64,000 nt of DNA from Eledone cirrhosa. Taxonomy: Eukaryota. This document shows, in pieces, positions 20,138-57,083 of this stretch. How positions within the stretch are numbered: position 1 is the stretch's first letter; every line of letters starts with the position of its first letter. The notes under the pieces are model-generated. The model was not told the origin of the DNA. It ran no database searches and was given only the letters and a program-made list of their open reading frames with translations. The DNA lies in NCBI GenBank assembly GCA_964016885.1, contig OZ024754.1, forward strand, positions 32,860,001 to 32,924,000, in the 5' to 3' direction. The position numbers were made by a program, and so were the translations under genes.

Positions 20138-20447
20138 CAATATATTAATAAATGGAAACTATATTTATAAAATCATAATTATTTTATTATATATAGTTCA
20201 AGGGCAACCAAGGCAGTCTTGGTGCACTTTCATCAGATAAAATACAAGATTTGTTTTATAGATATTGACATAACCGTGGAAAAACAACCTTGACGGTTGA
20301 AAGTTCGTTGGATATTGGAAAATATTGAATATATTGAATATTGAATTGTATATTGAATATTTACTCCAGTAAGCTGTTGAGTGCTTTATATCAGTTATAA
20401 ACTGTTAAGCTTGTTGGAATCCCAACAAATTAAATATAACTTCTGCA
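20138..20447. mobile_element. Divergent H1 element in (TA)n
   Basis: Same outer ends (atattaataaatggaaact... and ...cttctgca-(TA)n) and same inverted-plus-tail arrangement as 22407-22614. Confidence 0.75.
20180..20244 (-). ncRNA. Divergent hammerhead motif (family H1, core GAAC variant, possibly inactive)
   Basis: The minus strand reads TATTTTAT-CTGATGA-AAGTGCACCAAG/CTTGGTTGCCCTT-GAAC-TATATA-TA-ATAAAATA. Stem I pairs perfectly over 8 bp. Stem II has a different sequence but still pairs. Confidence 0.6.
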
Positions 20448-20487
20448 TATATATATATATATATATATATATATATATATATATATA

Positions 20488-20915
20488 CATAGTTAAAAGA
20501 ATAGAGGTGTAACACACAAGTTATTATATATTGGTAAACGGAATAGAAAATGCTGACAAATTGTTCACAGTTGAAAAATGGTTTAATTAGGAATAAAAGA
20601 GTATTAGTGATTGTATGGGTTAGCATTCAGTTGTGGCTTTAAGTTTTTAAGTTTTTACCGGTTGCGCATTTCTAAATGCTTTTCAAAAATAATTTTGAGA
20701 TAGTGTGTCCGTGCTAGAGCAAACAGCACGGACACTCTATCTCAAAATTATTTTTGAAAAGCATTTAGAAATGCGCAACCGGTAAAAACTTAAAAACTTA
20801 AAGCCACAACTGAATGCTAACCCATACAATCACTAATACTCTTTTATTCCTAATTAAACCATTTTTCAACTGTGAACAATTTGTCAGCATTTTCTATTCC
20901 GTTTAGCAATATATA
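20488..20915. mobile_element. Fold-back element in (TA)n: 191-bp inverted arms, 9-nt spacer, ~37-nt tail
   Basis: 20525-20715 vs 20725-20915, about 2 mismatches. The right arm encodes ...KNLKPQLNANPYNH*. Confidence 0.8.
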
Positions 20916-22406
20916 TACATATATATATATATATATATTGCTACGAAAAAAAATCTATTTAAAAAATTGCAGAAGATATTTACGATTCCGCGAATATGCG
21001 ATGGTTTCCACGAACAATTATCATTTAGGTTCTAAGGAAAATTCCGTGGATAACTGAAACCGTGAATGTCGGAAGTACACTGTGTATGTATATATATACA
21101 TATATATATACTGTATATATATGGGAGGGCTTGAGCGTATATGTATATATATATATGGGATTAGGTGGTGTTGTGTGTGTGGTGATGTGTTAGGGTGGTG
21201 GTGGTGTGTGGGTGGTGATGTGTTAGGGTGGTGTTTGAGTGGTGTTGTGAGGGTGGTGGTGTAAGGGTGGTGTTGTGAGGGTGGTGGGAGTGCGGTGGTG
21301 TGTGGGGGGTAGGTGGTGTTGGTGGGAGGAGGGGTCAGTGTGGTAATGAGTAGGTGTGCGGGTGGGGTGTAGGTGTTGGTGTGAGGGGATGGGGGGGTGA
21401 TGTCAGGGTGGTAATGTGTAGGTGTTGGTGTGAGGGTGGTGGTGTGGGGTGTGTTGTCGTGGTGGTGATGTCAGGGTGGTAATGTGTATGTGTTGGTGTG
21501 AGGGTGGTGGTGTGGGGTGTGTATAGTGGTGGTGGTGTGTGGTGGTGATGTGTAGGTGAGGGTGGTTTATAAGGGTGGGGTGAAGTAAGACAAGAAAGCT
21601 AATGAAAATTAAGATGGCTGCATCTCAACACAAATATTGTTACTGCACGTGCAGACACTTGAATCTATCACACATTATTTACTGGTCTTCTTCTTCTTCT
21701 CCTTGCTATTGCTGTTTATACTGTTGTTGTTGTCTTTAATACTGTTGTTGTTGCTGCTCTTCTTACTGTTGTTGTCTTTAATACTGTTGTTGTTGTTGTT
21801 GTTTTTGGTGTTGTTGTTATTGCTTCTTTTGGTGTTGTAGTTTGGTGGTGTTGTTTTTGGTGTTATTGTTATTGCTTCTATTGGTGTTGTTGTTGTTGTT
21901 TTTGGTGTTGTTGTTATTGCTTCTTTTGGTATTGTTGTTTTTGGTGTTGTTGTTATTATTGCTTCTTTTGGTGTTGTTGCTGTTATTGCTTCTTTTGGTG
22001 TTGTTGCTGTTATTGCTTCTTTGGTGTTGTTGCTGTTATTGCTTTTTTGGTGTTGTTGGTGTCTTTAATAGTGTTGTTATTGCTGGTGTTGTTGTCATTG
22101 CTGTTTTGGGTGTTGTTGTCGTTGTTGCTATTATTGATGTTATTGCCTCTTTTTGGTGTTGTTGTTGTCTTTGGTATTGCTGTTGTTGTTATTATTGCTG
22201 TTTTTGGTGTTGTTGTTGTATTTGGTATTGCTGTTGTTATTATTATTGCTGTTTTTGGTGTTGTCTATTTCTTCTCTCTTTTTCTTTTAGTTAAAATTAT
22301 CTCCACACTAATTTTGTTTGTCAATATCATTTGGTATTTTTCTTTACACACGTATACATAGAAACCCCAACCACCACATACTCATATATATATATATATA
22401 TATATA

Positions 22407-22614
22407 TACGATATTAATAAATGGAAACTATATTTATAAAAGCATATTTATTTCATTATACATATTTCAGGGATACCAAATTAAATTATGGCATGCCTTC
22501 ATCAGACAAAATACAATATATAACAGTTTTCTCCAAATACTTGTCGAGTGCTTTATATCAGTTATAAAAATATTTACTTGTTGTATCCCAACAATTTTAA
22601 ATAGAACTTTTGCA
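22407..22614. mobile_element. H1 element in (TA)n: inverted hammerhead segment joined to a forward tail
   Basis: 22407-22530 is the minus-orientation hammerhead segment. 22531-22614 is the forward tail ending TTTTGCA-(TA)n. Confidence 0.8.
22449..22513 (-). ncRNA. Type-I minimal hammerhead ribozyme (family H1)
   Basis: The minus strand reads TATTTTGT-CTGATGA-AGGCATGCCA/TGGTATCCCT-GAAA-TATGTA-TA-ATGAAATA. Confidence 0.72.
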
Positions 22615-23301
22615 TATATATATATATATATATAAATGAAAGGTATAGAAAATATTGTAGCAAAAAGCCAACAGTATTCCATAATATATATATATATATA
22701 TATATATATGAACTGCTCCAATTTTACCTAAGTTAATTATCTTCAACTGAACCAGATCAATAATGATCTATAATCATTTGATCCAGAAACATTATATGGA
22801 GTAGCGAAACAATTGTAAACGGGCATTATTAGTATTATTATTATTATTATTCTTTACATTCCTTACATTAAACTAAAACTATGTTGACAATCTTTTAATA
22901 ATGTCTTCCTTGTGAAATTTGTGGTCTTGTTTTGCTTAACTAATTAATATATATATTTATATATATATATATATATATGTAATGTATGTATATATATATA
23001 CTGTATGTATATATATATATAATGTATGTATATATATATAATGTATGTATATATATATATATAATGTATGTATATATATTTATGTAATGTATATATATTT
23101 ATGTAATGTATATATATATGTATATATAAACATACACACACACACACACACACACACACACACACACACACACACACACATATATATATATATGTGTGTA
23201 GTTTTGCGAGGTTTTTGATATGAAATCGTGTGTCGAAACAAATATTGTTATACCCTCCCCAGGTATAACAATATATATATATATATATATATATATATAT
23301 A

Positions 23302-56099: not shown

Positions 56100-56285
56100 T
56101 GTGGATTGGCAGTATCGGTAGAGGGTCGGACGCCATGCTTTCCAGCACAGTTACGTCCCTTTACGATCTGAGTTCAAATCCCGCCGAGGTTGACTTTGCC
56201 TTTCATCCTTACGGGGTCGATAAAATAAAGTACCAGTAATGCACTGGGTAATTGCTGGCCTTGTGCCTAAAGTAGAATCAATTAT
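56100..56285 (+). mobile_element. tRNA-derived SINE family A, near-consensus copy
   Basis: GTGGATTGGCAGTATCGG...GAGTTCAAATCCCGCCGAGG...GTCGATAAAATAAAGTACCAG...CTAAAGTAGAATCAATTA. Confidence 0.82.
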
Positions 56286-56376
56286 ATATATATATATATA
56301 TATATATATATATACACTTATGTAAATATACATACATCTATATATATATTTATATATATATATATATATATATATA

Positions 56377-56675
56377 GGATATTAACAAATGGAAACTATA
56401 TTTATAAAACCATATTTATTTCATTATACATATTTCAAGGACACCAAGTTAAATTATGGTGTAAAACTGATCTATATTATATTTTATCTGATGAAAGCAC
56501 ACCATAATTTAACTTGGTGTCCTTGAAATATGTATAATGAAATAAATATGGTTTTATAAATATAGTTTCCATTTGTTAATATCGTATTTTTACTCCAAAT
56601 ATTTGTTGAGTGCTTTATATCAGTTATAAAAATATTTGCTTGTTGTATCCCAACAATTTAAATAGAACTTTTACA
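56377..56675. mobile_element. H1 fold-back element in (TA)n
   Basis: Inverted arm 56378-56461 pairs with 56500-56584. A full hammerhead and the tail ending TTTTACA-(TA)n follow. Confidence 0.8.
56480..56544 (+). ncRNA. Type-I minimal hammerhead ribozyme (family H1)
   Basis: TATTTTAT-CTGATGA-AAGCACACCA/TGGTGTCCTT-GAAA-TATGTA-TA-ATGAAATA. Stem II shows compensatory changes relative to 54375. Confidence 0.75.
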
Positions 56676-56948
56676 TATATATATATATATATATTTATGT
56701 AAATATATATACATAGGCATATATACATATGTATCTATATATATACACACATTTATGTAAATATATATACATGTGCATGTATATGTATATATACACACAT
56801 TTATGTAAATATATAGATATGCATATATATGTATATACACACACATTTATGCAAATATATATACATATGCATATATATGTATATATACACACATTTATGT
56901 AAATATATAGATATGCATATATATACATATATATTTATATATATATAT

Positions 56949-57083
56949 AACAAAGGAATTGTGGTAAGGAACCAAATGGACCATAACGCACCAGAGTACT
57001 CAATACTTTGTGTAGTAGAGTGGTAGTCCAGAAATAGTCGTCGAAACGGCTTGAGTTCTGCCGTCGGGGTCATACTTTTACCT
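56949..57083. mobile_element. F2-family element in (TA)n (inverted tail plus forward CGAAACGGCTTGAG segment)
   Basis: 56949-57025 matches the reverse complement of 41805-41883, and 57033-57083 matches 41751-41803. Confidence 0.7.

Follow-up and report, generated by a model that had tools for sequence, protein, structure and literature searches.

Inverted, tailed insertions between TA tracts

The DNA analysed here (hereafter the window) is a stretch of 64,000 nucleotides from Eledone cirrhosa (assembly GCA_964016885.1, contig OZ024754.1, positions 32,860,001 to 32,924,000 of the forward strand). It is animal DNA, judging by a Fez-like zinc-finger frame, with a GC content of 35% and a great abundance of (TA)n tracts. 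Lodged between these tracts are 13 short insertions that are very probably the heavily 5'-truncated ends, each a pseudo-long terminal repeat (pLTR) plus tail, of several families of Penelope-like elements (PLEs), an assignment that follows from their lopsided mirror layout and from a hammerhead ribozyme motif in one family. The inserts, named throughout by their start, are those listed in a preliminary description of the sequence, which had proposed that about seven families share an arrangement of inverted segment, forward segment and tail between (TA)n runs. All 13 are present, each is flanked on both sides by (TA)n runs, and their summed length is 3,417 nt (5.3% of the window). Self-BLAST divides them into seven groups, namely H1 (four copies), F2 (three), F3 (two) and four singletons (20488, 24091, 46247 and 46697).

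Every insert contains an inverted, 5'-truncated copy in head-to-head orientation, and 12/13 have a one-sided tail. In the exception, 46697, a partial tandem, both ends are close to the internal point and a true tail is lacking; the one-sided tail ascribed beforehand to all copies holds for the other 12. When arm ends were placed by alignment with an uninterrupted forward copy of the family concerned, the outer end of the inverted arm fell at a single reference position in all copies of H1 (4/4), F2 (3/3) and F3 (2/2), in agreement with the one internal stopping point per family described earlier. The distance from this point to the 3' end is 83-91 nt in H1 (depending on how TATAT is counted), 79 nt in F2, 55 nt in F3 and 37, 32 and 33 nt in the singletons 20488, 24091 and 46247, respectively.

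Eight of the 13 copies are overlapping palindromes, with overlaps of 59-262 nt, stems of ~53-250 nt and spacers of 0-36 nt. In the remaining five the inverted arm extends further 5' than the forward part: 22409, 41922 and 56949 do not overlap at all, and 20138 and 23197 overlap by only 11-13 nt. Relative to the aligned end of the inverted arm, the forward part begins at -13 (20138), +1 (22409), -11 (23197), +36 (41922) and +4 nt (56949). These five copies cannot be constructed by one fold-back and two cDNAs are needed, which upholds for them the earlier proposal of two primed cDNAs. Recognising a non-overlapping copy requires a second member of its family, and for this reason the four singletons had to be palindromes.

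Two familiar mechanisms could account for parts of this geometry. Twin priming had been put forward for the layout in general; in its strict L1 form, in which a non-LTR retrotransposon (a long interspersed element, LINE) works on a single RNA, it would suit the three non-overlapping and two barely overlapping copies. However, twin priming as defined in L1 leaves inverted fragments with an internal deletion (PMC2837659), and it is contradicted by the arms passing the internal point in 8/13 copies and in 8/12 of the listed read joints described below. Moreover, all 13 inserts pass directly into (TA)n with no poly(A), and the hammerhead points to PLEs, making this explanation very improbable. Fold-back DNA transposons (miniature inverted-repeat transposable elements, MITEs) inserting at TA would likewise have long inverted arms and a TA target, but they are contradicted by the asymmetric ends, the one-sided tail and the variable arm length at the inner end, and H1 additionally carries a structured hammerhead. 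Fixed symmetric ends of the MITE type were not found, a tail or tandem occupying one end in 13/13 inserts, and an origin from such transposons is barely worth entertaining. The symmetric elements that do occur in the window look different: 23302-23405 and 24585-24685 are related MITE-like elements of ~100 nt in a TA context, with symmetric terminal inverted repeats whose ends may be of the Tc1/mariner type.

Individual copies

The longest H1 copy (53889..54484, minus strand) is a palindrome with arms of ~250 nt and a 16-nt spacer, a tail at 53889-53974, the TATAT microhomology at 53975-53979 and hammerhead cores at 54076-54028 (-) and 54383-54431 (+). In the H1 palindrome at 56377..56674 (+), an 83-nt inverted arm that shows 0/83 differences from the forward arm is followed by the forward arm, which is 41 nt longer at its inner end and has its hammerhead core at 56488-56536, and then by the tail. 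The non-overlapping H1 copy at 22409..22613 (+) consists of an inverted arm (22409-22530; hammerhead core on the minus strand at 22505-22457) directly abutting the tail (22531-22613). The fourth copy, at 20138..20446 (+), represents a diverged H1 subfamily with an inverted arm of ~200 nt, a damaged hammerhead (GAAC for GAAA) and a tail whose start precedes the aligned end of that arm by ~13 nt.

F2 comprises a palindrome at 41692..41883 (+), with 55-nt arms, no spacer and a 79-nt tail, and two non-overlapping copies on the minus strand. One of these, at 41924..41987 (listed as 41922), retains the last ~40 nt of the tail and a 20-nt inverted arm; in the other, at 56950..57082 (listed as 56949), the inverted arm measures 55 nt and the tail begins 4 nt past the internal point. 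Both F3 copies lie on the minus strand: a palindrome with a 55-nt tail at 47045..47284 and a short copy at 23194..23270 (listed as 23197), made up of the tail and an inverted arm of ~23 nt that overlap by 11 nt.

Amongst the singletons, 20488..20918 (-) is a palindrome with arms of ~190 nt, a 9-nt spacer and a 37-nt tail at 20488-20524, and has a 7-nt TA run at its internal point. The palindrome at 24092..24471 (+; listed as 24091) has no spacer and a 32-nt tail, and that at 46252..46451 (+; listed as 46247) has arms of ~77 nt, a spacer of 8-12 nt, a 33-nt tail and a 5-nt TA run at the internal point. The last singleton, 46697..46988 (+), combines an inverted arm with a partial tandem of period ~184 nt, the segment 46760-46807 recurring at 46944-46988. 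In the 24092 copy a 57-nt unit occurs three times (24130-24304), in the inverted arm only, reflecting either slippage of the reverse transcriptase (RT) or later duplication. Two further inverted structures, both decayed, lie in the window. The one at 45996-46118 (76% identity) may be an old insert of the PLE-end kind, whilst in that at 63221-63517 (74% identity), which has no TA flanks, a dispersed repeat is duplicated head-to-head.

Ribozyme and coding signals

A hammerhead descriptor run over the whole window returned four complete minimal type-I motifs, all of them within H1 arms, and gave no match in any of 30 block-wise dinucleotide shuffles of the window. Across five H1 arms 97.8% of cells pair, compared with 36-52% in slid controls, and three pairs of stem II are changed on both sides in a compensatory manner; this covariation comes from five related sequences, one of which supplied the structure. 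The F2 sequence starts within a hammerhead, of which the 3' half (~41762-41784 in the palindrome) keeps GAAA, a 5-bp stem III with a palindromic loop, and GUC, and 0/2,000 shuffles match its stem. RNA folding of seven arms was uninformative (z-scores of -0.2 to -1.6).

Coding potential is apparent in F3, in which an ATG-started frame runs from 47126 downwards through the internal point and the tail. In the tail, 8/11 differences between the two copies fall at codon position 3 (p = 0.009; 0.026 over three frames); the tail therefore looks coding, and the frame is likely to be the start of the open reading frame (ORF) of the element. A single phmmer match of an insert frame was rejected as a chance match to an unrelated repeat protein. 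PLE membership is proposed on structure and ribozyme motif, as read from the DNA, and not on RT.

Strand-switch joints in independent reads

The H1 arm and tail at 53886-54245 were compared with contigs of samples X3 and X1 and with raw restriction-site-associated DNA (RAD) reads of X7 and X8, two samples from a different study. The RAD reads are 150 nt long and anchored at likely restriction sites, and their counts do not equate to counts of loci. Loose ends in (TA)n start at 53975, just past the internal TATAT, in 5,693 reads of X7, 6,532 reads of X8 and 60 contigs of X3, confirming in both runs the fixed internal junction with (TA)n that had been predicted. This is the sole (TA)n loose end among the best-supported entries, beyond which lie 528 weaker ones. 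Read depth over H1 was not used as a measure of copy number because reads start or stop at 54058-54064 and 53906, which are likely restriction sites, and the tail end of H1 is barely covered by RAD reads.

Twelve of the 15 joints listed (of 20) switch strand, and they are read as head-to-head because their side lengths agree with the read start sites. Eleven of these 12 occur in X7, ten of them also in X8, and the remaining one was seen solely in an X3 contig, whilst X1 (another organism, share 0.19) yielded 78 contigs on H1 and no joints and was set aside. The lower coordinates of the 12 are scattered over 53925-54024, as anticipated for dispersed inner junctions; four are placed on one side within the tail or at the internal point, and in the other eight both arms extend past it. 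No sharp peak of forward ends was found at the internal point, with 5/12 listed joints falling within ~14 nt of it over a 100-nt spread, and the earlier statement that the forward part starts right after this point does not describe the read joints. In 6/12 listed joints the other end lies at 54093-54095 (in the interval 54087-54095), the edge of the longest TA run of H1, and the inner ends of 22409 and 56377, expressed in the 53889 frame, fall at ~54101-54104. The cluster at 54093-54095 may reflect a genuine hot spot or the limit up to which a diverged subfamily aligns.

These joints bear on whether the palindromes were created by fold-back during assembly or library preparation. Grounds for suspicion exist in the window: no contig of X3 or X1 spans the 53889 copy, and an assembly gap (35770-35969, 200 N) starts 19 nt into an F2 palindrome copy (35751-35769), with a duplicated block adjoining. 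This 3.7-kb block (32013-35706) is repeated at 37860-41553 with 97.7% identity, 5.8 kb apart and on either side of the gap, and is likely to be a duplicate of haplotypic or assembly origin that was interrupted at the palindrome. However, ten listed joints recur at identical coordinates in the two samples of a different study and so are not assembly artefacts, the (TA)n junction is present in thousands of raw reads, and 2/83 sites differ between the arms of the 53889 copy. An artefactual origin of the inserts can therefore be given next to no credence.

The TA run at the internal point

At the internal point, an alternating A/T run of 5 nt is found in H1, 3 nt in F2, 4 nt in F3 and 7, 2, 5 and 4 nt in 20488, 24091, 46247 and 46697, respectively. 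The share of element positions lying in equally long runs is 0.08 in H1, 0.09 in F2, 0.08 in F3, 0.03 in 20488, 0.34 in 24091, 0.04 in 46247 and 0.13 in 46697, and the enrichment at the internal point is significant at the level of families (Fisher p = 0.0016). A run is thus present in 6/7 groups, although it is blurred in 46697, and only 2 nt remain in 24091. TA microhomology at the internal point, as had been suggested, is borne out to this extent; TA homology alone as the factor that chooses the site is not, as H1 has other TA runs of 7, 6, 5 and 5 nt at which no (TA)n junction occurs among the best-supported loose ends. A TA run therefore helps, and does not define, the site.

The same observations discriminate against a replication-based origin, in which ordinary 5'-truncated insertions later acquired an inverted duplication by template switching between the flanking (TA)n and the internal TA run. 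This would produce the same geometry, overlapping or not, and would make use of the internal run seen in 6/7 groups, and the window does contain tailless palindromes centred on (TA)n at 15029-15090 and 54808-54871. However, the unused TA runs of H1, in which 53975 remains the only best-supported (TA)n loose end, and the inverted arm in 4/4 H1 window copies make it improbable. The two tailless palindromes, and a third at 14333-14385, differ from the inserts in geometry and perhaps arose from template switching at TA tracts.

Relationship to known Penelope-like elements and other retroelements

The layout itself is mostly known. An inverted 5'-truncated copy, a tail of 30-40 bp at one end and a (TA)n target have been described for PLEs, and the mechanism was called unresolved (PMC8557442); overlapping inverted pLTRs have also been reported, with self-priming proposed as their source (PMC3846280). 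Minimal hammerheads reside in PLE pLTRs, and in truncated PLEs some lie on opposite strands 100-700 bp apart (PMC4209133). The present inserts resemble the endonuclease-containing (EN+) PLEs that carry hammerheads (Penelope/Poseidon, Neptune and Hydra) in their head-to-head pLTR, one-sided tail and AT-rich target, and the minimal type-I hammerhead of H1, upstream of the two outer points, has the same arrangement. The earlier suggestion of a retroelement origin with PLE affinities is thereby strengthened. In PLEs the pLTR and tail encode the first 12-22 residues of the ORF (PMC3846280), and an ORF start that enters the tail is likely to be shared by F3. Unlike EN+ PLEs, the inserts are only 64-600 nt long, with no RT or endonuclease seen. 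A partial tandem, which in EN+ PLEs forms direct pLTRs, is encountered in 1/13 inserts (46697).

Naiad elements encode an N-terminal GIY-YIG domain, a CxC linker and a C-terminal RT. The singletons 20488, 24091 and 46247 match Naiad in their (TA)n target, inverted 5'-truncated copy and tail of 30-40 bp, and also in having no canonical hammerhead. H1 differs in possessing a full hammerhead, whereas Naiad is reported to have no canonical one (PMC8557442).

Outside the PLEs, twin and dual priming have been defined in L1 (PMC2837659), where likewise both target ends prime and the 5' part is inverted, and dual priming by two RNAs resembles the overlapping inserts in its logic. Unlike L1 products, the inserts are without poly(A), their second priming site is fixed in each family and their arms mostly overlap. 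Animal non-LTR retrozymes, which have been tied to pLTRs (bioRxiv 10.64898/2026.07.22.740005), are also short, non-coding and hammerhead-bearing, and 46697 recalls them in its partial tandem; unlike retrozyme tandem arrays, the H1 copies are single inverted units. The inverted-plus-tail layout is not treated in the accessible text of a paper on Octopus vulgaris repeats (PMC13282606), and a search conducted mostly outside subscription journals found no published account of PLEs in terms of twin or dual priming.

A proposed origin from two cDNAs

The best explanation overall, to which we attach moderate confidence, is that the inserts are PLE ends made by two separately primed cDNAs; if their PLE origin is granted, priming from both ends of the target is the probable route. 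Under this model a GIY-YIG endonuclease would cut both strands inside (TA)n. One 3'-OH would prime reverse transcription at the tail end, and the other would prime at an internal site selected by the protein and aided by pairing with 3-7 nt of alternating AU. Both cDNAs would stop early at variable points and then be joined head-to-head. Where both had passed the internal site, a palindrome with a tail would result, requiring two RNAs or strand displacement, whereas a first cDNA stopping near or before the internal site would leave non-overlapping arms. Given this requirement of the overlapping copies, the process would resemble dual priming more closely than twin priming of the L1 kind. In vitro, a PLE protein has been shown in 2024 to cleave and extend both strands at AT-rich sites (PMC11167929), and two internal RT start sites, which are not homologous to the target, bound the tail in the one PLE concerned (PMC11167929), whereas the earlier proposal had placed one start at the RNA 3' end.

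The principal competitor of this two-cDNA model retains a PLE origin but derives each insert from fold-back, or self-priming, of one strand, with an endonuclease resolving the hairpin at the TA-rich internal point. Long palindromes may undergo centre deletion, and under this scheme the non-overlapping copies would once have been palindromes, their central part having been removed subsequently. Head-to-head palindromes have been interpreted in print as products of self-priming (PMC3846280), and the tail has been ascribed to endonuclease resolution (PMC8557442). Fold-back explains the eight overlapping copies with their 0-36-nt spacers as well as two-ended priming does, and an enzyme cutting TA-rich DNA would also account for the internal TA run. 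However, an extra deletion is required in 5/13 copies, and in four of these five it must end no more than 13 nt from the aligned internal point (a window set post hoc). Furthermore, 4/12 listed read joints are of the non-overlapping kind, and in vitro reverse transcription is initiated on both strands at each boundary of the tail (PMC11167929). Fold-back is accordingly judged unlikely, albeit deserving of serious consideration.

Several observations weigh against the two-cDNA model or against the assignment to PLEs on which it builds. As fold-back predicts, the forward arm exceeds the inverted one in length in both overlapping H1 copies, and spacers are short (0-36 nt). The start of reverse transcription in vitro shows no homology to the cut DNA (PMC11167929), unlike the TA run at the internal point of the inserts, and at 55-91 nt H1, F2 and F3 have longer tails than the 30-40 described in print. 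A target-site duplication or empty allele is not readable inside (TA)n, and the lack of a contig across the 53889 copy also counts here. With regard to family identity, no hammerhead was found in 5/7 groups (F3 and the four singletons). Rfam gave no match at the gathering score in the window, and hence none for the hammerhead; over 53800-54500 it returned only hairpin look-alikes, all below the cut-off. The F2 and F3 frames yielded no relative in protein searches. Pfam detected no RT or GIY-YIG endonuclease in 150 frames (140 longest of 195 complex frames and 10 of 71 element frames), the inserts, at 64-600 nt, being too short to reach these domains. Finally, 0/12 exact motifs (10 DNA and 2 peptide) occurred in the accessible portions of the published Naiad, Chlamys and Hydra files, a form of matching that misses diverged families and line breaks.

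Two aspects seem to be new, namely that 6/7 families carry a TA run where internal priming would start and that five copies lie beyond one fold-back. The broader proposition, that the inverted-plus-tail form of PLEs is built by two cDNAs, one from each (TA)n end, with an internal TA run selected across unrelated families, is advanced tentatively.

Implications

In its remaining content the window includes, at 48475-50730 (-), a C2H2 zinc-finger frame of 752 residues without stops, for which the nearest cluster in the Atlas bears the name Fez; from its predicted protein, this is likely to be a single-exon gene of the Fezf/earmuff type.

The inserts are real and, with a layout that is mostly known already, they are likely to represent the ends of new PLE families in a TA-rich animal genome, so that the main message is that ~5% of the window likely consists of PLE remnants. 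Annotation could mistake such remnants for MITEs or simple palindromes. How the inverted, tailed insertions of PLEs are formed has been named an open question (PMC8557442), and with the non-overlapping copies and the internal TA run, two-ended priming could be told apart from fold-back by a simple test on genomic data. Should the whole genome be as densely populated as the window, these elements would contribute short palindromes in large numbers, and if the two-cDNA model is true, their many short copies would provide a ready map of the reaction products.

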